Origin: Catajapyx aquilonaris
Taxonomy: Eukaryota
Direction of reading: 5' to 3'
DNA: 48,990 bases
NCBI GenBank assembly: GCA_000934665.2
Contig: KZ538767.1
Span: 1 to 48,990, forward strand
Shown here: in pieces, positions 6,007-46,069 of the stretch
Numbering within the stretch: the stretch's first letter is position 1
Layout: each line of letters opens with the position of its first letter
The notes under the pieces: generated by a model
Seen by the model: only the letters and a program-made list of their open reading frames with translations
Databases searched by the model: none
What the model was told of the DNA's origin: nothing
Program-made: the position numbers and the translations under genes

Positions 6007-6034
6007 NNNNNNNNNNNNNNNNNNNNNNNNNNNN
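6007..6034. other. Assembly gap (N run) after poly-G
   Basis: 28 N; single Ns also at 8008, 15100 and 36138. Confidence 0.99.
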
Positions 6035-22295: not shown

Positions 22296-22483
22296 CCATT
22301 TCGCTACCAGATAGGCCTGAACCACATAGATTTCGGCTTACGCCTACTCCGAAGATACGGACAAGATATTCTACCAATAATAACAGCTCTGTTATTATTG
22401 GTAGAATATTTTGTCCGTATCTTTGGAGTAGGCATAAGCCGAAATCTATGTGCATGGTTCGGGCCTATATGGTAGCGAAGGGG
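22296..22483. mobile_element. TTAA-specific (piggyBac-like) palindromic MITE
   Basis: TTAA|CCATTTCGCTACC...GGTAGCGAAGGGG|TTAA; hairpin over its whole length, centred near 22387. Confidence 0.88.
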
Positions 22484-22827
22484 TTAATAGCAGTTGAAGC
22501 ACTAACTGCATTAATTAACACTTGGTTTTAGGGCCCAATTTAGTGGTCAGACCACAATCTTTTCCTAACATAGGGCCTACCCTCCAGTAACTTGGAATCT
22601 TGACTACGACTTACGTACACTGGCATTGTATATACAAGGTATGTCATGCAAGTTGTTCCAGAAATAAGGCTCAAAAGTTCTTGGAAAATGCTGGCAACAC
22701 ATTGTGATCTGTCTCTCGACACAGATCCTTGACATTACACCTATTCAGCAGCAATGAGTAGTAGATTGCAGTTGTTTATAGTGGTATGGTTTACACCTAA
22801 ATGTCTAAATAAATGTATTGCACTTTG

Positions 22828-23080
22828 CGGGCTGAGAATCATCTTCGGTTAACTCCACTTTTTAATTTTTTTCAGGAGAGTCATTTACATATTCAGAACT
22901 GAATAATTCTGGTCACTTGTGGACTTGAACGAAACTGTTTCCAACTCTCAGAAGGTTTATGATGCCATTATTACAACCTACGTTGGGTGGATATGAACGA
23001 ACATAACACATCCAATGTCAATCCGCTGTTGGCTCGATTTCGTTGAAAAGTGGAGATAACTGAAGATGATTCTCAGCCCG
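22828..23080. mobile_element. Small MITE with ~35-bp TIRs
   Basis: CGGGCTGAGAATCATCTTCGGTTAACTCCACTTTT / AAAAGTGGAGATAACTGAAGATGATTCTCAGCCCG. Confidence 0.7.
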
Positions 23081-23574
23081 TGACCCTTGTTGAAACATCC
23101 AGTAGAGTAGCATTGTTGGAAATGTATTGGACATGGGAGATCAGGAAATAAATGTCAGCTGTGTTTAATGTGGCTCCTCTTGAGTCCAAACAGCTCAATT
23201 AAATGGTATAAAACTGTATAGATTAGGAATAATATTTAAAAAAAGTGTCAGATGTAATAATAACCATTAATTTTTAATAGTTTCTCATTGTTTTTTAACA
23301 CACATATTATGCACATTTTTGAAGTACTCCCTATCACAGTGCAGTTACACACTCACGCACACCCTTGGACAGTCTGGCAGTGTAGCCATAAACAATGAGT
23401 TTGGATATAATGGAAGATGCAACACTCGGAAACTTTTGATACAAAAAAATCACCCATGACTAGTCATTTTTAACTTTTCTTTTAAAATTATGCAGCTGTC
23501 TGAGTAAAACTCGCATCCTCTGGCCATTGTAATACTCTTCTTGCATGGAAGTACACCACTTGGGAATGTTACTA

Positions 23575-23766
23575 TCACGTCAGCACTTCAATGACACGAT
23601 CAGGGAATCCACCAGGTGGTGAAACAGATTTGTGTACCATGATCACGTCATTTGCTAGTCCATTTCGATTCCTCACTTCACTGTATAATCGGAAGCCATT
23701 GTCCTCTAAGTGTCTCTGCAGCACTTCTCTCCCTTCTTTGTCATGGATGTACTCCACGGACATCAC
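23575..23766 (-). CDS. Star-like/FkbM protein, distal terminal coding exon 5b
   Basis: Strong acceptor ctttctcttttattaacag|GTG; VMSVEYIHDKEGREVLQRHLEDNGFRLYSEVRNRNGLANDVIMVHKSVSPPGGFPDRVIEVLT*; phase 0, matching the exon 4 donor. Confidence 0.88.
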   Translation of the reverse strand: MMSVEYIHDKEGREVLQRHLEDNGFRLYSEVRNRNGLANDVIMVHKSVSPPGGFPDRVIEVLT

Positions 23767-25187
23767 CTGTTAATAAAAGAGAAAGTGTTACAAATAAGAG
23801 TAACTGAGAGATGCAGCTCATTGCTGCAATGCCATTGGCTACATGGAAAATAAGCTGCTTTACTTGTTAGGATTATTAATGGCCAAAATTACAGGAAAAT
23901 TAAGCGTTGGCTGGAAGGAAAGGGAGCAAGCTATTAAAAACTAAATAAAGGAAGATGTTAATTATTGAGTTTCAAGCATACTGCAAGCATTCTTAGGATT
24001 AAAATGGGTATAGGCCTACTATTTCAAATATGAATTGGTTGTTCTACCACTTCGGATCTCATTTGACAATTTTTTGGCGAGTTGCACATAATCGATCATG
24101 CCAAAATATATGTCAAATATTTCTGTTGTTAATGAAACCTAAAGAGGTGAGAATTCAGTAAAATGAATTTACCACAAAATTATAAATTGCCACGATGGTG
24201 ACAAATGATACAAGAGGGACGCACCTTATTTGATCAGATTTAGGGTCTCATGCTTTCATTGTAAGCCACTGCACTGGTTTCCCTTGTAAACTATTTAAGA
24301 CATTATTGTCAGACTAACTGGGGAAATATACGAGTAAGTATGTACTTTTTCAGGTATTACATGGAACATTTCTAAGCAGGTTTTTAAATCGTAAGAAGCT
24401 CTCTGTGACACCAGAGCTTGTCATTGTGCACTGACAGTGTGAGCAGGAATGCTGACCTAATAAAAGAATCATTTAATTTCTTACTGGTAGGATAATTTCA
24501 ATTTTTGGTCACAACACAAGTGTGCCAATTAAATTCATCCATATATTTGAAAGCATACATTATCATAGTTTCTTTTATGCATTTTATAATTCTATGGCAA
24601 TGTCAACACAAATAAATTAAAATGAATAAGTGACAAATTAATATGGTTAATAACTGTTATTTACTAATGTTTTTACTGATCATTTTCTTTTCATATATCA
24701 TGTGTACAAAAATATGGCATAAGAGCCCACTGTCATTTTCCCTGAGTTCATTTGGGATGACCCCTGATAACCATCAAATTATCTAGGGCAATATATTGTA
24801 CCATATAATGTGCTCCTTATTTCCATAAAATGTGTAACACTACAAATTAGTAATGAGGGAATTGGATTATTGTTCCAGTAAAAATGTTCTCATTATTATG
24901 ACACAATCCTGGCAACTCTTTAAATCCACTATAAGGGCAGAAAAGGAGAGAGATCCCCTGTTTATACAATTGCCTGTTAACTGTTGTAGTATACTAGTAG
25001 TGTACGTATGTCAGTATGTGCATATACTCATCATAGAATATGAGTGCACCAAAAACATTGCACCACTCAAATATACCGTATAACTCACAAATTTCAAGCA
25101 TTCCAAGATATTCAGCCACCACCATACTTGCAATGACAAAAAGGTTCATCCATCTAATTGGAACATGGGAGATACAGATTTTGTATA

Positions 25188-25473
25188 CATGGTGAAGGGA
25201 AACTCGCGGACAATAGCCAGGTAGACTGATAGTACTCGCAAAACTAATACAAGTATAGGAATGTACAATTAGTTTTGGGCGCCGTTGCGTAGTTAATGCG
25301 TACTGCGCCTTTAAAGTGTCGAGGGCCAGATGGTAAAATAAGAGGTAAAAACACCCAAGTGCAAGGGTGTCGTACCCTGATTCCCCAAGGCTGGATTGTT
25401 CGGAGGCCCTATATTAGTTTTACGAGTATTATCAGTCTACCTGGCGATTGTCCGTGAGTTTCCCTTCACGTTG
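25188..25473. mobile_element. Tc1/mariner-type MITE between the two terminal exons
   Basis: GTGAAGGGAAACTCGCGGACAATAGCCAGGTAGACTGATAGTACTCGCAAAACTAATA and its reverse complement at ~25412-25469. Confidence 0.8.
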
Positions 25474-26796
25474 TGTTTAGAAATTATTTCATTTGATATA
25501 ATGGATCTCCCCAAATATAACATGTTCAGATGGACATCTGTCAATAAATTTTTAGAGAGCCTGTTTCAAGCATTCCAAATGGATAGCAATAAATTCCATA
25601 TCAATGAGCCAGTAAAAAAGAAGATAAATTGCATGAAGTAAAAAGACCAGCATATTCAAGCGATTCAGTGGAATGAGCAAGTTGAAGATCTTTTATTGAC
25701 CCCAAGTTAGAATGCTTGAATCAGGCTTTTTTTACAATGGATTGCATGAATGTTTACATGTGTGGACGATACCAGATCTGGGAGCACAGGAGAGAGGTGT
25801 GACTGATGGATATTTATGTATAACTTGTGCAATACCATTTGTGGTATGTATGTTGATGCCTATTGAAATTACTGCATTTTTGAAATAGATAGTAGTGTAA
25901 CAGAAGTCAGCTGCTGAGATCAGTATAAATAAACAAGGTATAAACCATGCAGCATGAGTCATTAGCACATGAAAGATGTCTACTGGCACAGATCTGAGCT
26001 CTGTTCCATCAGCACATTTCATTGATGCACTGATACACATTAACGATTTTTGCATGTCTAGTCTCATTATTGTCATAAATATACACTACATGTATTGTCA
26101 AAGACAATTTGTGGCATGGTCAGCTAATTTCCAATACAAATTAAGACTCTCTTTTAACATAAGTCACAGGGCTCAACATTTACACTCTAATCATTGGAAA
26201 ATGTTCTCACCAAAAACCATTATTGTATTTTTAAAAAATAATGTTCAAAAAACTAAAGTTGTACAAGTTCATTTTTAGACTGCAAGCATAAAGAGTTCCT
26301 CCGTCAATTAAAGGGAATGAACAGGAAAACTCTGGGAAGATAAATCACCTCTACCAATAAGAGTTAATGAACATCCTTGGTTTCAACCTAGTACAACGTG
26401 TGCAAGCATCATTACATAATTATAAAGATGGTGATGCACTGCCCATGAAGTATGGAGGCAACAGGCAAGGAATAAATTATGGATTGTTCACTCCAGAAAC
26501 AATATTCACCACAAATTAATGTGCCCCTGATTATGCTTCCAATGGTTTTCTTATTTCCAAACAGATTTCTGAGTTACACAATAATTCATATTTCCCTCCC
26601 TGAGCCTCTCTTGAACTGCTGACTTAGGCAGTGAACCACTCTGTATTTCAGCCAAATATGCTGCTGTTAATCACCACAAACGTCACCCAATGTACTACAC
26701 TACTACAGGATAAGATGGGTTATAAACACCAGCTAAATATGCAGCGCCAGAGAAGTAGGAAAAAAGCTTCCACCAGCGATGCACAACAAACCGATG

Positions 26797-26976
26797 TTAC
26801 ATACTGCCTGCACGCATCTTACTCCTCTGCCTGACTGTTCTGTGAACAAAGATAAAGTCATTGGCCAGATTCTTGGGGTGGACCACCTCAGCAGCAACAG
26901 TGTAGTTCTGACCACGCATGAAATCCTCCAAAGATTCCTTTCCTTCCTCCACATGGAAGAACTCCACTGACATCAC
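26797..26976 (-). CDS. Star-like/FkbM protein, proximal terminal coding exon 5a (not in ORF track)
   Basis: gagtag|GTG ATG TCA GTG GAG...; VMSVEFFHVEEGKESLEDFMRGQNYTVAAEVVHPKNLANDFIFVHRTVRQRSKMRAGSM*; 66-nt GT-AG intron from exon 4; homologous to exon 5b. Confidence 0.85.
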   Translation of the reverse strand: MMSVEFFHVEEGKESLEDFMRGQNYTVAAEVVHPKNLANDFIFVHRTVRQRSKMRAGSM

Positions 26977-27042
26977 CTACTCATTGCCTTTTAATGAACA
27001 AATTCTCAAGAGCAGTTATCCAAAATATAAGGGTTATCTCAC

Positions 27043-27258
27043 CTTGATAGTGATCTTGTCAAAGGGAATTGTTCTCAAGACATCCAGTTCGTTTCCCTCC
27101 ACATCCAGGCTGAAGTAATCAATCGTGGTACGATTCAGTGCACGCATCAGCGAGTACAGAGGGAAGCACTGGACAGGTGTATACTTGCTGCCTGCATACT
27201 CCTTGTCCACATTTTGGGAGGATATCTTTCCCAAATTGAATGCCTGTTCAAACATCAC
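27043..27258 (-). CDS. Star-like/FkbM protein, coding exon 4
   Basis: cag|VMFEQAFNLGKIS...VQCFPLYSLMRALNRTTIDYFSLDVEGNELDVLRTIPFDKITIK|gtgaga; IDYFSLDVEG is the FkbM-family motif. Confidence 0.93.
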
Positions 27259-27737
27259 CTGCCAGAAGAGAAGAAATTGACATAAGAAATTGCACCCTCT
27301 GTCACCACAACTTATAGTTATCTATTGTGCCAGCGTTATCATTATCTGGAGAAAAAAGTACACAACACTTTGACTGCTCTTTTAGAGTTCGTTTGTCATT
27401 TTAAAATGGTATCAAACAGCCATGTAAAGCATATGATTGTGGCATCAATCATTATCACGGTAAGCCTCTATGAGGAAAAGATGTTTTTTTTTTGCCCTAA
27501 CTCTGGAATGTCTTCACTTTCTAGTTTCTACAATGATACAAATATAGGACTTAAAATATCCAGGATTCCATTACATTATTAATTTCATTTTACATGAACA
27601 AAATATTACACCAAAATTCATATGTCCGAATTATCATCCAGCGCAGAAGCTTTAAATAATTTGTGACTAATTATTATGATTATCTCAATTCCACATTATT
27701 TTACTTCTCTTTTGTGTTTCATATCAGTACATAATAT

Positions 27738-28166
27738 TTTTTTTTTTTTATTTTTTATTTTTTTAAATTACACCCTTGAAGCCTTCAGGCTTATGTAGGG
27801 GGGAGGTTTTTCGACCATTTTCAATCTCTCCGGTGCTAGGATGGAGGGGGGGACAGTGGTGCAAGTGCAATGTCTCATGGCGGAGGCCGTGTGCAGTCCC
27901 CCAGAGGGCTTAGGTTGAAAGACGACCCTCTAGGTGCGGGTAAGAGACCTCCCACAAACACCGCACCTCCTCCAGTGTGGGACATGGATAGGAAAGGTAG
28001 GAAGCGGCTGTGGCCTACGATTAGGAAACAACTCCGGTATTCACCTGGGGGTGACCGTGGGAAACCACAGAAAACCACGGTCAGAGTTGCCGGCCTGGGG
28101 ATTTGATCCCTGGACCTCCCGATTTGCAGCCGGATACCAAATCCCCTCAGCTACTGCTGCTTCGGT
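27738..28166 (-). mobile_element. tRNA-derived SINE, family A (intronic)
   Basis: Homologous to 7772-8252; poly-A tail; 17-bp TSD ATATCAGTACATAATAT (27721-27737, 28167-28183). Confidence 0.92.
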
Positions 28167-30081
28167 ATATCAGTACATAATATAAACATCTTAACTCTCA
28201 TAGTAAACTCAAGGTGTTTTTTTAAAGTGGGCCTGAAAAGTGTGAATCAATTCGGGTAGTGAATTCAAACACAGCCCATGTGCACTATTGCTTCCCCATT
28301 TTCAAAGCTTCCCACAGTAACGAAACAGCGCATCATTGGGAAAAATCACAGTGATACACTGTGCCTTACCACAATTTAAATTTCTGAAAGCTGAAAAAGA
28401 GTCTGCATAATTATTTTCCGCACATGTCATGTCCCAAATTCTCATGTTACATTGCTCATATAATTACAATATATGGATATAATACTTGAAGTATTTGTCT
28501 GTATTTACCAATGAAATATCAGTTGCCATATGATAATTTGATAATGATAATATCAGTTGCCATAAGATAATTCTGTGATCCTCTACAAACTGCTACCTCA
28601 CATTTCACTAATTATATCGAGGTTGGGTAGGGGTGACACACATGCTACAGGGCCAGTTAACCCGGAACACGATAATATTTTTTAGCTATTACATGTATTG
28701 CTGGTGCTACTGGTCCGTTTCGTGCACTTCCTTGCTAACTGATTCTTGAGAATACCCTCATTACCATAATATGAATTTCTTTCATCTGCTCTATGACATG
28801 CACACATTCCGTCTTCATACTGTACATGCACATGCATATTATGAGCTGCTACTCTTTCTTCACCATGAATTATATGCAGAATTAGTCTGGAGTCAAGAAT
28901 GTACAGATGCAGTCACCAAACTTAAGATGTCCATTACCATTTGTGGCTCTTTCTCTATCAAAGAGATGGCACAAGAAAATCTCCATGTTTATGCAAAAAA
29001 AATGAGGAACATATTATGTTGGTCCTGTGACTGAAAAATAGGGATATTGCACATGTGAGGATAATTTTAGGCCTTACTCCTGCACTTGTACTTGGTAGGT
29101 GGTGGACCCAGGCGCTATCTTAATGCAAGAGAGTCAGCTGCAAAATTTTCACCAATATGAACATAAACTTAGTTATGTTACGTATTTCAAATGTACTTAT
29201 TAAGAATGACTGCTGTATCTTAATTAAAAGGCATACAGGTAAAAAATGCATATATACTTTTTACTGGGAGGAAAAAAACACAAGCATAACGCTTAATGGC
29301 CCATCTTCTGAAGGAGAGGAGAGTGGAAACTGCCTCACTTTATAATATTACATGTATACAATGTTTATACACTATCACAATGCCTAGCAAGCTATGTAAC
29401 TGGGCATTTTTCAATAACAAAAGGATTTAATAAAGACTCTACCTGATTACTAATTTACAGTTGATAACTGTGCACAGGTGATGCCAGTGGTACTGTATTA
29501 GATAAGCATTAATAATTCTTGATCAAATGTATCACCATTTTTATTGCTATGGTCTATATATTTACAATTGAAATGTCCCCAGTCGTTCAAGATGTTTTGG
29601 CACTAAATAGTTACATTTGGCGAGTTACTTTTAGTGGTTATGAAAAGAATTAGATGACAATATTAGGTTGATTAGATTCATCCTTTTAAAGCCTGCAAAG
29701 GAGTGTAGGTGTGTGGCCAGCAAATATACCATTAATGTTTGATGCCAATTATTCCAATGGGTCATTCACAACTGGAAATTTATTGCTTGGTTATTTAATT
29801 CAACTCGGCCTAATATTAGCAGCCAATACTTTTGACAACCACTGAAAGTAACTACCCCTAAGTAACTGCTGAAATATAAGCAGTTTAGTACCAAATAATC
29901 GCAACAGAAGGGACAAGTATTTTGCATCATCCATGCATATGAGTTCTCAAAGATCACGTGTAAATCATTCATAAAGTTTAGCAATCCAGTAGTTATACAA
30001 TCCTTGTTGTAGGCTACATGTATTAAATATGCGAGCAGCCGTAAAATGTAATGCGACTGCAAAATCTCCCTGACGGGCTAG

Positions 30082-30278
30082 CAGCGTTTCTCAACCTTTT
30101 TACCCTAGGAGAACCCTTGAAATCATATTCATGTCTCAGGGAGAACCCTTTCATAAAAATTATTATACAATCAATTATTATAACTCCAAAATACATATAA
30201 ATATTATAAGCCTGTTATCACTATTTCTCGCGGAACCCTTGGCAATATTGTTTGTGGAACCACAGTTGAGAAATGCTG
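30082..30278. mobile_element. hAT-type MITE (intronic)
   Basis: TIRs CAGCGTTTCTCAAC/GTTGAGAAATGCTG; GGCTAG on both flanks. Confidence 0.75.
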
Positions 30279-30533
30279 GGCTAGTGAATCACTTCAAGTA
30301 GTTCATATGTTCATTACTTAAAATAGCAAGCTAACTACTAAGAGATACCCTTCGTATAAATGATCGTGAAGTCTCTCAAACTGCTCAGGAAACCACACAT
30401 GGTTAAAACATTTCAATTTTTTTTCAAATGTTGTCATAATTAGGAATTATATATTTTAATGCCCCTTGTCAACCTTTCGCCTTTAGAATATAACCGGAAA
30501 TTTTTCTTTGCAAGATTTAGATAAGAGTCTAAC

Positions 30534-30728
30534 CTTTTGAGGGTACGGTTTTGTTGCAAGACACGCATTGGAGCTCCACACATGTCTCCGCTTCTTCAGG
30601 AGCAGATCAAAGTTTTTGGGGTCCCCTTCGACCAGCAGACCTTGCCATCCCAGAAGCTTCTCGAGAACCAAAGTGTTGGAGCGGGTCTCACCATCCAGGG
30701 CACCACACTCCACAAAAAAACCGTTGCG
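30534..30728 (-). CDS. Star-like/FkbM protein, coding exon 3
   Basis: tag|RNGFFVECGALDGETRSNTLVLEKLLGWQGLLVEGDPKNFDLLLKKRRHVWSSNACLATKPYPQK|gttaga; SAM-binding-like motif FFVECGALDGE..SNT. Confidence 0.94.
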
Positions 30729-31255
30729 CTACATGGTTGTAAGAAAAAAAATTTAATGTTGCAGTTGCACTGCCACATCATTCGCAGACACTCCACTTTG
30801 CAATATCAAGGTCTGAGATATGTATTCCTCTTGCTAGCCTTGGCAAAGCACACTAGAAAACAGCTGGAAGTAATTTTTTATAGAGTTGTAAGTAAAAATA
30901 TGCTGACTCATTATTTATCCAAATTTAACAATAGCCTACATCAACGTAAGCTGTGGCTCCAAGTGGCCTGTGAACTTTAAGGTTTTCCATATCACAGGGC
31001 TAGGGAATATTATGATTCTGCATTTTTTTCTAAATTGTACTCCTAACCTCAGATCTTACAAATGGCATTCAGAAATGCAGTGAATGTGGTCCAGTATAAT
31101 AACTTACGGACAATATATACCAAACTATTTTACAGTGATTTTTTTTATTTGAAAAGCGTATGTGGCATACATTATTTTCATTACTAACCACATTGTAAAG
31201 ACTCTAAGAGACAAATATGTATTCCTCCTGATGAGAAACACATAGATTCACATAC

Positions 31256-31443
31256 CATGTCCCCGAGAATCTCCCGGACTTGAGAGGCCTGTCCCATGGA
31301 TGTGTCCACAATCCCAGCCTGACTAAGGTTGTAGTCGTTCGTCGACGGTGGAAACAAGTGATGTTGTCTGATGTACTGAAGAACCCTGGCATCATCTTGT
31401 TCGGGAGGACCCTTCAGAATCTCTTCCATGCTGAACGTAACAT
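31256..31443 (-). CDS. Star-like/FkbM protein, coding exon 2
   Basis: tttcag|AT GTT...(D)VTFSMEEILKGPPEQDDARVLQYIRQHHLFPPSTNDYNL...SMGQASQVREILGDM|gtatgt; phase 1 in, phase 0 out. Confidence 0.9.
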
Positions 31444-34226
31444 CTGAAATCGGAAGGTCCCTATATTATAAGCAGCTCATCATTATCCGACTCAGGCCTA
31501 ATATAGACGAGTTTCAAAATGCTGTTGATTCAGTTCACTGAACCTTGGGGAGTTGCAGAAATGGTTCGACGACTCGATAAATGCTAGGCGGCTTTTATCC
31601 GGTACAGAAACATGCATCCAGGCTATTTCTGACCCATTGATCCGCTAAGCTTACGATATCCAGGTGCGGATCGAGAAAGGCCTTTCCTGATAGCCCGGAA
31701 CACTCACTCGTTCGAAAATGGTCACGTGTGCAGAAAAGCAATGAGCTTGGTTGGCCCATTCTGTCCCAGAAATATGAAAAACCAATGGTTTAGCAGCACA
31801 GTGCAGGAAAAATGTAGGCCTGCCCACATTATATCGTATAATTTGCTTTCTCAAAAACAAAAAAAAACTGTAATAGTACAGATAAAGAGCCTTTTTATTA
31901 CATATTCTGGTAGAGCTGACCTTCCTTTATGACCCCGCACAATCAAACCTAACACTTGTGCTTGTTCCTTTTATCCCTTACGAATGTCTGCAACTATCCG
32001 ATTCAATATATTCATGTATGTAGGTTGCTTGTTTCCACAGTAGGTCATGTTTACCCACATTCGGATAAATACACACGTAAGATAATTTTTCTCACTAGCT
32101 TCACTAAAACGCCTGCAAGCCGTTATTATTTCTTTTGGGTTCGTCAAAATACAATAGTTTACATATTAGCCAAAAAGGAATGAGAATATGAGCTGCACCT
32201 ACATGCGGCACTCCCAAAAATGTACTTCAATAAGGCCCTACAATATGGCTGTTGATGTTAACAAAAAATTGAAGCTTTCCATTCCTGGTGATTCACCACA
32301 GCAAAATGTACAGAGATTAGTTCAAAAGATCAAGCTAATTAGACCTTGTCCCCACAACAAGCGCTCCAGGCAACCGCATGTATACCCTGCGTATAAATCG
32401 AAAGCTGTGTCCCATTAGCAAGACAACAGAACGATAGACCTACTACATTGCCTGTTTGATTTGATAATCATGCTCCACCTCCCGCTTATACGGAACTGAA
32501 TGAGCTTTCTCCTAATTTACGACTTATGAGCCCCAACGACATCAATACCTAGATATCATTCAGAATCACATGGCGCGGAAACATATATAGAAGCTCCAGG
32601 TCAATCCCTTTCTGGGAAGTTGATTGCGCATATCCAATGCGTGACACAGGCTGAACTCTATTGAGTTTTTTTTTCTGAGAAAGTACAAAGAACGATCCTG
32701 ATTTCCGTATCACGTTCACCCTATGATTAAGCCTCCCAATAACTCCTGCGGAATTACTAGGAACAGCTTACGCATGAGCGCTACTGAAAAGGATGTACAG
32801 GGATATTGGATGCAGTTGCACAAAAGAGCCTGACGAGCTCGAGACGCGGTCACCATGACAGGCATGTTTCGGATTATTTTTTCATTTTACCTCCGAGTTT
32901 CACAGGTCATCGCAGCTGTCTCTCGAGTGCAACTTGTATATCAAACTTTACTTCGCGTAACTACAGTGCAGTACAATGCATAATTGTCACTAGATCTCCA
33001 AACTCGATGATGACAATGCTCGTGACAATGATGACGAGGCGATCATTGTATTTGTCGGGCAATAGCATATGTTTATTATACTTATTCCCGAAAACAGTAG
33101 GATAATTGCGCACCAAATATATACCGCATGTTTCATAATTTAGCTCACATCCGCATTCGTGAAAGCCTGGCGAACGCTTTTTTCCACTCGCTTCCGTCAA
33201 CTTCAAGTCTGCGAATTTACACCTGAATATTGCCTGAATACGTATACACCATCTGGTTTTCCAATAATATATACGCATTTGAAAAACGGACGCTGATGCG
33301 AGCGTCCGTGAAATTGTCACCGATACGGATCTGATCTCATTCTTAAGCACACGGCAATTTGTACTTTCTTGATGGCCTTGCGCAATCGACCAGAAGGGTA
33401 GGTGATTTGGAGGAAGGTGGGAAAATCAAGTCCTTCATTCGCGTGTAACACAACAATTCAGCCAGTTGCTACCAACTCCCACGAGTCATTCGGTATTTAT
33501 AGCCGACAAGATCATTCATCACGTATTTGCTTGTTACCGTTGTGTAACTAACAAGATATAACGATTCCTCTCCCGTAGCTCCAGTCACCTAAAAATGGCA
33601 ATCGAGATAGTCTAACATTTTAACTAAATTTCAAATGCCCCTTCTTGCAAAAATCATGATTTGAATTCCTCGACCATTTTACATTCCACACAATTGAGAC
33701 AAGTCAATACGTTGCCTCATAAGTCCTTGGCATCCTCAGGTCTCCCTTCAACCGGCTACCGGCTTATTTCATCTTCTAAATACAGCTAGCGTGACGTAAT
33801 TAGAGTGCACCCGACGGAATACAAGGCTCTCATGGTTACCCACAGCAAAAAGAAAGGGTCAAACCAGCATGTCAGCCTACAGATTCAGAAACCAGAACCA
33901 TTTACGGTCTGCAAAAGTGGTTTCGAAATGACCCCTTTCTCCCGATCATTAAAGAAATGAGCAATGGGCACCAAGGACATACGTTTGCACACGCACAGTA
34001 TGATGACATTACGAAGTCTGCATATATTATACGGAAAGAATATTGAATATTGTCGCTTATACTAGTATAGGAAAACAATATTTTATCACACACACTATCT
34101 ACACTTCCATATCACTCAATACACTCATCCTGTTTCCCCACGTAGATAATGGTGACACCTGTTCAGTCAACGCGGAACAGACATTTTTATACCAGACAAT
34201 ACAAATGGCAGTTACGTCGTATTTAC

Positions 34227-34413
34227 CGTGTGCATCCTTGGGTTGCTGTACCATTGTTAGCCCCCAATTGCGGGCGTCCTTGAATGCAGCGTTGACTTTG
34301 CTTGGTATGGGATGCAGAATCACGTCATTCCTGTACACGAACAGGAGAAGAACGAGGGCTCCGACCAGACACAGGGACATGCATAATACCGGAGACATTC
34401 GAAACATCATCAT
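34227..34413 (-). CDS. Star-like/FkbM protein, first coding exon with signal anchor (start uncertain; in-frame upstream ATG at 34467)
   Basis: MMMFRMSPVLCMSLCLVGALVLLLFVYRND...QQPKDAH-G|gtaaat; hydrophobic TM segment; phase-1 donor matches exon 2; joined CDS is 321 aa with 5a or 325 aa with 5b. Confidence 0.78.
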
Positions 34414-36030
34414 AGCAGAAGTCTTGAGGCGGGATGTCACCAGTGATTCATATTCAGTAGTCCCCATCAACCAGCAGTGGCAGGAACTAGGCCCATTCTT
34501 CTTGACACCACTGAGGGATACACATCGGAGCGGTAGTGTACACGATGTATACTGACCAGACACATCCGGTGATTTACAGTTTCCTCTCAGATAATGCGGG
34601 TATATTTGTAGACAACCGCAACCGGTAGTTGCCATATCTGGTCGAAACTTACGCATGGTCACGCCTGACATCAGGGACAGTGTGGCACCGCTGTGTCACC
34701 GGGAGCTATGAGTTGTTTTTTTTTTTTTTTAGAGCTAATGACATGCGAAACCTCATTCCCGGAACTGCCCTCTTGCTACACACCACATTGGAATGACACT
34801 CGCAACACTACTCTGAACTCGAGATCAATGCACCAAACCGGCTGTTGTAATCGAGAATGATCGACTAACCTTGAGCTCTGCAAAGTTCAACTATCAATTA
34901 GAATAGAATCGATGAGGTCACTTTCCGCATTGCTACAATGATCATATTTCATGCCGCCGGATCATCCCTGATCCTAATTGGCTCAGACGCAGATCAGCTG
35001 GGCCCGCAATTTGAAAGCAGCCTGTCAAATATGCCCGGATTGTGTCAATATGACTGGCATGGTTTTTTCATTACGCTAGGTACTCACGGGAGCTGCACTG
35101 AAACGATGTCAGCAGTGTGCAGCCCTGATATAGACTCAAGTGAGCGCAGACTCCTAGCTGTACTTTCTATTTCCCCGACCCCGACCCCCCCGACCCCTCG
35201 TTGCCTAGCCCTTTCCAGCAGCACACCGCACCCCTTCCCGCGCAGCTCAGGAATGCCAACATGGAATATTGGCATGCGAATATTTACATCCCCTTTCCCA
35301 CGGCCGGTACTCTTCCGTTACACCGCCTCTTCTAAGGCCATTATATGACTTATCTGACTGATCTCGGGTCATGGACCATGTTTTTAGAACGCGTTCTCAA
35401 TTTGAATATTGCACTCATAGCAGGAACGGCCAATTAACGTCGGTACATCTGACTGTACCCATCATCACATTTTTCCTATACGGGGTAGTCGGAGATGAAC
35501 TATTGGTTCCTAATATGTCCATTGGTGGGTCGTGACCTGATAAAATATTCCATTTTTATGCGGCCTTTGTCGCTGCAGGAACTTATTAGCGTAAGGCCCG
35601 ATAAGGCCATTCTGGGCAATGAGCAGTCTGGCGGCAGAGTTTTAAAGAGCAGTAAAATTGTTGAAATACAATAGTGCTCGGTATATAGTGATGTGTGACG
35701 AGATAAAATGTTCATTCAACGTGGTGTGTTGGGCAAAATGCTTTTGGCAGCCTTTTCCTCCACTTGTGAGATTGGACGAGCCTGTCATGTCAGTTTTCAA
35801 GTCCCAGTACAAAATATGCAAAATAATACTGTACTACAATGCTCTGGGGCATGCAAATTCTTCCAGTTTTCCATTTCGGAAATTCGTGTTTTTTGTTTGT
35901 TTTCGTGTGGAATATTTTCGATCCGGCGAGGCGACATGGGTTGAATCCGCGGATATGGAACCCGCGGATAAGGCTTGTGGTGGCTGAGACTTGCCAAGAT
36001 GTTTTTAAAAAGTACCGTCTATTGTATTTT

Positions 36031-44233: not shown

Positions 44234-45124
44234 AGGACATGGGTTAAATCCTTATGGAAAAGTGCCCCCAGTTGGATTTGGCTGAAACTTGGTCAGTTAA
44301 TAGACCTTGTCCTCAGGGTCAATTGTTCTCAAGGCCGAAGAAAATCTACCGTGCCGTTTGGCCGCTAAAGGCGCTGAAAGTCGGAAATTCAAAGTTGTCC
44401 GATCTTGGTGAAAATGATGCACACTGTAGAGTTTGATGAGCTGAGTCGAATTCGCCATGGGATAATTTTCTCTTACAAACCATTTGACCGCAATACGGAT
44501 AAATTAGACGTCAACATCGGGCCTTTAACTGGGACTATAAGGGTGGATTGTAAAGACGGAGTTTAAACAGCGCCTCAATTAGATCACGGTTTAAACCAGG
44601 GTTCCGTTTGTAAAGACGGGGATTAGCCTTGAGACAGGGTTCAAAACCACGGTCTAACTCAGACCACCTTCGAGGGTGGTTTAAACTGGGTTCAGACGGC
44701 AAAATGAAGTCGGATGGGCTCGATTACGACCGTGACCTTCGCCTTCTGCAGCAATTGAAGAGTCGACCAGCTCGCTGTAGCGTCGTGCACCTCCGGATTT
44801 TGCATTGACCCTACAGAATAGTACACTACAATACACCTCATTACAGATATAAAACTAAAACTAACTTATAACTACCAAATGGTTTGTCAGACAATTGTCC
44901 CATAGCGCATTCGACTCAGCTCACAAAACTACAGTATGCGTCATTTTCACCAAGATTGGACAACTTTGAAATTGCGACTTTCAGCGCCTCTAGCGGCCAA
45001 ACGGCACAGTAGATTTTCTTCTGCCTTCAGAACAATTGACCCTGAGGAAAAGGTCTATTAACTGACCAAGTTTCAGCCAAATCCAACTGAGGGTACTTTT
45101 ACATAAGGATTTAACCCATGTCCT
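44234..45124. mobile_element. Long-TIR (~250 bp) Kolobok-like element
   Basis: TTAA|AGGACATGGGTTAAATCCTTATG...CATAAGGATTTAACCCATGTCCT; arms ~44234-44487 and ~44876-45124; right TSD degenerate. Confidence 0.85.
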
Positions 45125-45160
45125 TTCTACACAAATAAGCCCCATTAAAAAAAAACTCAC

Positions 45161-45511
45161 CCTGAAGAAGTAGTTCAGCACAAAGACATCCAGATAGCCA
45201 CAATGATTTATGTCGAATACTCTGAAAAAGTACTGCAGTGCCTGTGGCTCCTTCCTGTTGTCAAGAGCAAGTACAAAGTCCAAATAGGTTTTGTAGTCCA
45301 TTTCTCCATCATACGTGAGACACTCTTGGAAAACTCTGTCGATGAAGACAGAGGTGAGGGTGCCTGTTCCATATCTAGAGAGCTCTTCTTTGCTAAGCAT
45401 CCCATTGTGGTCTTTGTCCAAGTTCAGATACTGGCCATATACACGTAGGGCTGACGGGGCAGAAAACCAATTGGCCTCCTGGAGGTCCTTTGGAAGCTCC
45501 TCATCTCGCAG
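45161..45511 (-). CDS. PPP2R3C: PP2A regulatory subunit B'' gamma, EF-hand exon
   Basis: ttacag|LRDEELPKDLQEANWFSAPSALRVYGQYLNLDKDHNGMLSKEEL...FQECLTYDGEMDYKTYLDFVLAL...LNYFFR|gtgagt. Confidence 0.97.
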
Positions 45512-46069
45512 CTGTAATTAAAGCTCATTGTATTAATAAAATATGAGTGACTTAGAAGTGAGGCAAACTGGGTTGAGTTTTATTAATTCAAGTAGTGTTG
45601 ATTAAGTTAACTGATTTCATGCCAGCTCATGGGTTTGTATATTATTATGATACACTCAATGCAACGCAATGGCTCCAACACGCATGATGGTGGAGCAGCA
45701 GAGACTGTCATTGTTGATTGCATGATCCCATTGTGGATATCTACGTAAATAGCTTCCCCAATTATTTACATTGTTCTTACTGACTGTGAGGGCTCAGCCA
45801 GGGTGTTTATTACATTTTGCTCATTAATTTGTATTGATGAGGTTGTCTACACTGCAAATCATGTGCTGACTATGTGCTATGTCGTAGATAGCACAAGGTG
45901 CTCTAGTTAGCATAATTATGGGGCACTGTTATGTTACCCTCTTGATGTAAGGACCTGTCAGCAGATCAAGTATCACTGGCCCTTCCATAGTCACCTCTGA
46001 CAGAAATACTGATGCAGAAAATGCTTCCTAGAAGTCACACTCCTGCCATGAGGTGGCAATAGAAACAAT

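Follow-up and report, generated by a model that had tools for sequence, protein, structure and literature searches.

We identified a tandem duplication of the last coding exon of a Star-like gene in the genome of Catajapyx aquilonaris (GenBank assembly GCA_000934665.2, contig KZ538767.1). The window, by which we mean the whole stretch of DNA analyzed, comprises positions 1 to 48,990 of the forward strand of this contig and is eukaryotic sequence with a G+C content of about 40%. The gene lies on the minus strand and has a five-exon layout, in which exons 1 to 4 are common and are followed by two homologous phase-0 exons, 5a and 5b. We consider it quite likely that the last coding exon was tandemly duplicated long ago, that neither copy has since lost its coding role, and that the two serve as alternatives through a 5a cassette that breaks the reading frame.

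The proximal copy, exon 5a, reads in its unspliced form through 59 amino acids (26976-26797, minus strand) and then TAA. It is separated from exon 4 by an intron of only 66 nt (26977-27042). The distal copy, exon 5b (23766-23575, minus strand), encodes 63 amino acids in frame after exon 4 and then TGA. Both copies are preceded by AG, both start with GTGATGTC, both are open up to their stop codon, and their first 8 bases are identical. The encoded segments align without gaps at 20 of 48 identical residues (31 of 48 positives; E 2e-12 in a single BLASTP comparison), and 79 of 144 bases are identical at the DNA level. Exons 1 to 4 form an open frame of 321 amino acids with unspliced 5a and of 325 amino acids with 5b. 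Exon 5b ends in three successive in-frame stops, TGA TAG TAA (23577-23569). The sequence GTAACAT follows or overlaps the stop in both copies (23577-23569 and 26799-26791), which suggests that the duplication included the stop region. The original prediction for this locus had described a single exon 4 donor serving two phase-0 exons that begin alike, together with their translations, their ungapped identity of 20 of 48 residues, and an N-glycosylation sequon (NYT) in 5a only. Each of these points was verified, and the likeness of the two exons goes well beyond what chance would give.

The RNA data are the assembled contigs of one public run (X1), whose kind is not on record, mapped to positions 22500-35800. 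We take the run to be RNA- or cDNA-derived because its contigs are spliced. Stretches without contig cover were not counted as evidence. One contig of 891 nt runs through exons 1, 2, 3 and 4, and its joints (34227/31443, 31256/30728 and 30534/27258) coincide exactly with those predicted. The two junctions by which the prediction was to be checked are both found in the X1 contigs, exon 4 to 5b (27043>23766) at a contig depth of 21 and exon 4 to 5a (27043>26976, with 66 nt skipped) at a depth of 7.8. A third joint, which had not been foreseen, connects a donor within 5a to 5b (26805>23766) at a depth of 5.5. All three have GT..AG ends on the minus strand after a shift of the cut in the mapping. 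The depth of the contig over exons 1 to 4 is 27, to which the sum of 21 and 7.8 comes close, contig depth being a poor measure of abundance.

These joints bear on the possibility that 5b comes from a separate paralogue whose other exons are absent from the assembly or located elsewhere. Apart from the 3-kb distance between the copies nothing speaks for such an origin, and it is already contradicted by the contig that joins exon 4 directly to 5b (27043>23766). In addition, a tblastn search of the whole 49-kb window with both isoforms as queries found no further copy of exons 1 to 4, in agreement with the original prediction. We regard a paralogous origin as extremely unlikely. The best stray match of the search (42260-42036, E 0.19) contains two stop codons and was dropped.

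In transcripts that are spliced on to 5b, 5a is a 172-nt cassette exon (26976-26805, minus strand), hence more than a terminal exon. Its donor, GGCA|gtatgt, has its GT at 26804-26803. The donor sequence gtatgtaa (26804-26797) also contains the TAA with which the unspliced reading ends (..GSM*), and this stop is spliced out with it. Where 5a is joined to 5b the junction codon is AGT (Ser), followed by DVRGVHP from 5b in a shifted frame and by the stop TGA at 23743-23741, so that translation ends eight codons into 5b and the product is 327 amino acids long. Skipping of 5a puts 5b in frame and gives a product of 325 amino acids. The NYT sequon lies in the cassette. As the cassette length of 172 nt is not divisible by three, the homologous segments of 5a and 5b never occur together in one protein. 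In the spliced transcripts that contain 5a, 5b acts as a shared last exon and 3' untranslated region (UTR). RNAs with a premature stop in the last exon usually escape nonsense-mediated decay, and since the stop of the 327-amino-acid form lies in the last exon its RNA should, by this usual rule, not be a target. The acceptors of the two copies contrast, as that of 5a follows a purine-rich stretch in the 66-nt intron, with a weak polypyrimidine tract ahead of its AG (RNA joint 26976/27043), whereas that of 5b follows a clear, strong pyrimidine tract. The weak appearance of the 5a acceptor would fit regulated or minor inclusion of 5a.

The original prediction had treated 5a and 5b as alternative terminal exons, giving isoforms of 321 and 325 amino acids. 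In this arrangement each copy would come with a separate stop, 3' UTR and poly(A) site, and splicing to 5b would compete with cleavage after 5a. Unspliced 5a does have its own TAA, RNA contigs lie downstream of that stop (25762-26066 and 26117-26377), and just past them, at 25697, starts the only AATAAA found after 5a. On account of these contigs and this signal, a 5a-terminal transcript with its own poly(A) site and a putative 3' UTR of 26796-25697 (minus strand) is possible. The 321-amino-acid form (..GSM) can come only from RNA that leaves the 5a donor unused. However, the covered stretches could equally be unspliced precursor, and no poly(A) end was seen in the contigs, though contigs cannot show RNA ends. 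The contig joint 26805>23766 indicates that some 5a RNAs continue to 5b, which contradicts terminal exons as the sole route. Both copies are indeed spliced to the exon 4 donor and both frames are open, as had been predicted. However, 5a has a donor of its own and joins 5b, and the spliced cassette form has 327 rather than 321 amino acids. Overall, terminal use of 5a alongside its use as a cassette seems to us possible but doubtful. Downstream of 5b, a 438-nt RNA contig covers 23329-23766 and includes 3' UTR at 23574-23329 (minus strand), and ATTAAA occurs at 23278, 23169 and 22866.

The encoded protein is methyltransferase-like and carries a domain of the FkbM type. Exon 4 alone passes the Pfam cut-off for PF05050 (Methyltransf_21/FkbM) with 35.3 bits against 22.7 (E 1.6e-08). 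The motif FFVECGALDGE in exon 3 aligns to positions 1-41 of the same profile at 13.9 bits (E 0.06), which is below the cut-off when scored alone, and the glycine positions of this motif are nearly invariant in the family alignment (A1). PF05050 is annotated in nearly all of the 120 homologues listed, with a few lacking it. A crude count places a hydrophobic, signal-anchor-like 20-mer at residues 6-25. From its sequence the protein looks membrane-anchored and lumenal, and the shared exons 1 to 4 would hold the N-terminal anchor and the half of the protein with the S-adenosylmethionine (SAM) motif.

The fold was mapped on a model of a homologue (P0004), built with 40 aligned homologues, and not on models of the two isoforms of the window. 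The model has a mean predicted local distance difference test (pLDDT) score of 89.7. A Foldseek search with it returned 67 PDB matches at E<=0.001, and those listed are methyltransferases throughout. Among them, the FkbM structure 2py6 matches at E 5.8e-05 with a root-mean-square deviation of 3.6 over 195 columns. Solved structures are about 10-13% identical in sequence, and alignment A1, used as a profile against the PDB sequences, gave 0 matches. The equivalent of exon 5 in the homologue starts at residue 257 and takes in most of the strand 254-261, the helix 268-278, and the strands 281-288 and 295-301. According to this model, the element exchanged between the isoforms would be the strand-helix-strand-strand that closes a class I (Rossmann-like) methyltransferase fold. 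The model and the Foldseek matches agree with the earlier proposal that the isoforms share the SAM-motif part and swap the C-terminal strands.

Each copy on its own resembles the C-terminal segment of the family. Against a profile built from the C-termini of 113 homologues, 5a alone scores 61.1 bits (E 2e-20) and 5b alone 45.9 bits (E 9e-16). Between the copies, the proportion of synonymous differences (pS) is 0.68, near saturation, and that of nonsynonymous differences (pN) is 0.39. The resulting ratio of nonsynonymous to synonymous divergence (dN/dS), roughly estimated from 48 codons, is about 0.31. Of 2000 copies of 5a given random mutations up to the divergence observed, 316 kept an open frame, none scored as high as 45.9 bits, and the top score was 25.8. 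The copies were also compared with the consensus of those homologues that align without gaps (37 of 119). Fifteen consensus positions are retained in both copies, 11 in 5a only, 8 in 5b only and 14 in neither. Gly24, which is 100% conserved in the gap-free set, is kept by 5b alone. In 5a it is replaced by an Asn that creates the NYT sequon (N-x-T) and precedes the penultimate strand. The adjacent Tyr25 (97%) and Phe43 (92%) are kept by 5a alone and are changed in 5b. Since each copy retains ancestral residues that the other has lost, neither derives from the present form of the other. These results argue for an old duplication, with purifying selection apparently acting on both copies.

A quickly computed tree of the exon 5 segment (38 rows, 50 columns) gives 5b a terminal branch of 1.03 compared with 0.31 for 5a, so 5b evolves faster. 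In this tree 24 of the 35 inner branches are open, and the duplication cannot be dated from it relative to speciation. The long 5b branch could be taken as a sign that only one copy matters, the other being a decaying relic or splicing noise, with either 5a as a minor by-product or 5b as a fast-drifting UTR copy. The changes in 5b at the conserved Tyr25 and Phe43, the change in 5a at the invariant Gly24, and the failure to find both copies in any relative searched would also be expected in that case. However, both copies are open and fit the family profile (61 and 46 bits), no simulation out of the 2000 neutral ones matches the score of 5b, dN/dS is low (about 0.31), each copy keeps ancestral residues missing from the other, and both exon 4 junctions are present in RNA. 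We therefore think it improbable that one of the copies is dispensable.

Taken with the RNA joints, these observations lead us to prefer an old duplication with a frame-breaking cassette, which may work as follows. The last coding exon of a type-II-membrane-like gene of the FkbM/Methyltransf_21 fold would have been duplicated in tandem long ago, and all transcripts would have exons 1 to 4 in common. If splicing used the weak-looking acceptor at the end of the 66-nt intron, the 172-nt 5a would be included, and its donor (GGCA|gtatgt) would then join 5b, shift the frame and bring about a stop eight codons into 5b. The inclusion product would carry the 5a version of the C-terminal strand-helix-strand-strand, with 5b serving as 3' UTR. 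Skipping of 5a would instead join exon 4 directly to 5b, which would then be in frame. It is plausible that the two C-termini differ in function. One can go further and suppose a regulated switch between two distinct lumenal proteins, in which 5a would have exchanged the glycine at the turn before the penultimate strand for an N-glycosylated Asn, and 5b would keep the glycine but remodel the last strands. A methyltransferase-like protein of the secretory pathway would in this way acquire a different specificity for its substrate or client, and the duplication may predate major pancrustacean splits and survive only here. We consider this extended proposal unlikely.

For exon 4, the best homologues are those of insects and crustaceans, with 64-67% identity (Periplaneta, Procambarus, Bacillus rossius, termites, Palaemon and Panulirus). 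Orthologue clusters, which include Periplaneta, Zootermopsis, Palaemon, Macrobrachium, Panulirus, Cherax and others, contain annotated isoforms that vary N-terminally or internally. Pairs of sequences were examined for a C-terminal swap, defined as being at least 90% alike before the exon boundary and unlike after it. Some gene calls read through into the intron after K|V, and the intron position is therefore shared with homologues. Eighty metagenome loci (L001-L080) were chosen as encoding a relative of exon 4. An exon 5 match is present in 66 of these loci. In 51 of them the equivalent of exon 4 runs on into that of exon 5 without an intron, and in the other 15 an intron of 59-1059 nt lies at the same place. 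Because 51 of 66 loci have no intron at this boundary, many metagenome loci are distant relatives. The closest ones (L002-L005 and L008) have no exon 5 match within 1.4-2.6 kb.

Several observations weigh against a duplication maintained for two C-termini. No second C-terminus occurs in any of the 29 members of the 10 orthologue clusters, each species having one. Among pairs drawn from the 120 listed hits and the cluster members there is no true C-terminal swap, only intron read-throughs. A search of 1.84 billion representatives gave 17 hits and no relative of 5b above 55% identity, and a search with 5b alone among longer proteins yielded 5 candidates, none of which scored. None of the 66 metagenome loci with an exon 5 match, out of 80, has two such matches, though only 15 loci extend at least 2 kb, and 8 at least 3.3 kb, beyond the first copy. 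The dN/dS ratio is drawn from only 48 codons with near-saturated dS, and the 5b branch, three times that of 5a, could also mean relaxed constraint. The RNA support comes from a single run of unrecorded kind, and from contigs rather than reads. The shorter side of the three joints that involve 5a or 5b measures only 26-28 letters, compared with the 31 needed to count as bridging (26 letters each for the joints of exon 4 to 5a and to 5b). We infer that these short sides mark contigs broken at the splice fork, because a word-based assembly must break near a fork at which the first 8 bases of both branches are identical. That both isoforms exist as proteins is likewise inferred from RNA contigs and sequence.

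The proposal of an old duplication kept under selection is supported by evidence within the gene, namely the family profile, the dN/dS of about 0.31 and the retained residues, but no relative with the tandem pair accompanies it. The conserved tandem arrangement that had been suggested as a check was not found in the clusters, the listed hits or the metagenome loci. Within the limits of the sets searched, the tandem pair looks lineage-specific.

The upstream part of the gene, all on the minus strand, has AG/GT boundaries throughout and compatible phases in exons 1 to 4. The coding part of exon 1 (34413-34227, 187 nt) starts with the ATG at 34413 and ends in the donor CACG|gtaaat in phase 1. Exon 2 (31443-31256, 188 nt) is joined on both sides (31443>34227 and 30728>31256) within the 891-nt contig. 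Exon 3 (30728-30534, 195 nt) carries the glycine-rich motif and the start of the Methyltransf_21 profile. Exon 4 (27258-27043, 216 nt) holds the core of that profile with the sequence DYFSLDVEG, and has the single donor AAG|gtgaga that serves both 5a and 5b. Exon 4 itself also starts with GTGATGT, as do 5a and 5b, and V-M is encoded in all three. The resemblance is probably a coincidence, as exon 4 of the homologues starts V/I-V-S-F. A further in-frame ATG lies at 34467-34465, 18 codons 5' of the assumed start and within a transcript contig that reaches 34510. The N-terminus may therefore be 18 amino acids longer, in which case 18 amino acids would be added to the isoform lengths given here. 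More in-frame ATGs lie upstream at 34635, 34656 and 34671.

Intron 3 contains a repeat resembling a short interspersed nuclear element (SINE) followed by an A-rich tail (27770-28190, minus strand). The RNA contigs that pile up over this repeat add up to a depth of about 3550 and include many variants and loose ends, as expected of a highly repeated, transcribed element. ARAGORN called no tRNA in the window. An element resembling a miniature inverted-repeat transposable element (MITE) lies between 5a and 5b (25187-25474). Its inverted arms of 63 nt are 90% complementary and 162 nt apart, and RNA contig depth over the element is raised to 38. A second MITE-like element (22323-22452) has inverted arms of 64 nt, 95% complementary and 2 nt apart. 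The upstream neighbor of the Star-like gene is a PPP2R3C-like gene with EF-hands (protein phosphatase 2A regulatory subunit B'' gamma), identified from a minus-strand exon at 44993-45517 that is 86-88% identical to sequences from animals of many phyla. Such even identity gives no guidance on the taxon, and within the sequence data the arthropod assignment follows from the ranking of the homologues alone. Runs of N, which are assembly gaps or ambiguous bases, occur at 6007-6034, 8008, 15100 and 36138, and none lies within the gene studied here.

The gene is a clean example, with RNA support, of a duplicated last exon that yields two versions of a protein, in which the frame-breaking length of the cassette makes the downstream twin either a coding exon or a 3' UTR. 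Annotation of this locus should model both isoforms and the 172-nt cassette, as pipelines based on open reading frames miss the 59-amino-acid exon. The animal FkbM-like proteins named Star-like form a large family, and we know of no substrate for any of them. The pair points to their C-terminal strand-helix-strand-strand as the region in which change is tolerated or favored. Such duplications are an established source of isoforms, here in an uncharacterized gene, and the finding does not open a long-standing question.

"Protein Star" and "Star-like" are names that the homologues carry automatically from their source, and no Drosophila protein is among the 120 matches listed. Drosophila Star is described as the type II membrane protein by which Spitz leaves the endoplasmic reticulum (PMC2950126). 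Its likeness to the protein described here is a hydrophobic anchor, predicted near the N-terminus, ahead of the conserved domain. Star differs in having a long cytoplasmic N-terminus. The product of the present gene may be an enzyme rather than a chaperone, given the glycine-rich SAM-type motif that it retains. In its PF05050 match in exon 4, and in the match of the homologue model to 2py6, it is like the FkbM methyltransferases. No printed account of splicing in the Star/FkbM/Methyltransf_21 family was found in the literature searched, where "Star-like" gave unrelated papers on polymers and StAR.

The classical mutually exclusive exons are those of arthropod Mhc and Dscam. As in these genes, duplicated exons of the same phase compete here for a single donor upstream, and the protein receives just one of the homologous segments. 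Unlike in Mhc and Dscam, both exons can share one RNA (26805>23766). It is the reading frame that makes the segments exclusive, and the distal copy is not an internal exon but the final one. Strict mutually exclusive internal exons are ruled out by the contig joint between 5a and 5b and by the position of 5b as last exon.

A closer parallel is provided by tandem exon duplications in human genes, of which 77 of 236 events are C-terminal according to Martinez-Gomez et al. (2021, PMC8373072). These authors state that C-terminal substitutions arise from such duplications through alternative poly(A) sites or through exon skips that cause a frameshift. The events described there are curated and human, and most are conserved to fish, whereas the present pair is known from one RNA run, and no orthologous second copy was found among the 29 cluster members or the 66 metagenome loci with an exon 5 match. 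As in the cases described there, adjacent homologous exons encode alternative versions of one structural segment. The two copies are homologous neighbors, they have a common upstream exon in the RNA, and their segments never occur in one protein. The 5a/5b pair is a C-terminal substitution by tandem exon duplication, a class already known, and it fits the description given in that study exactly.

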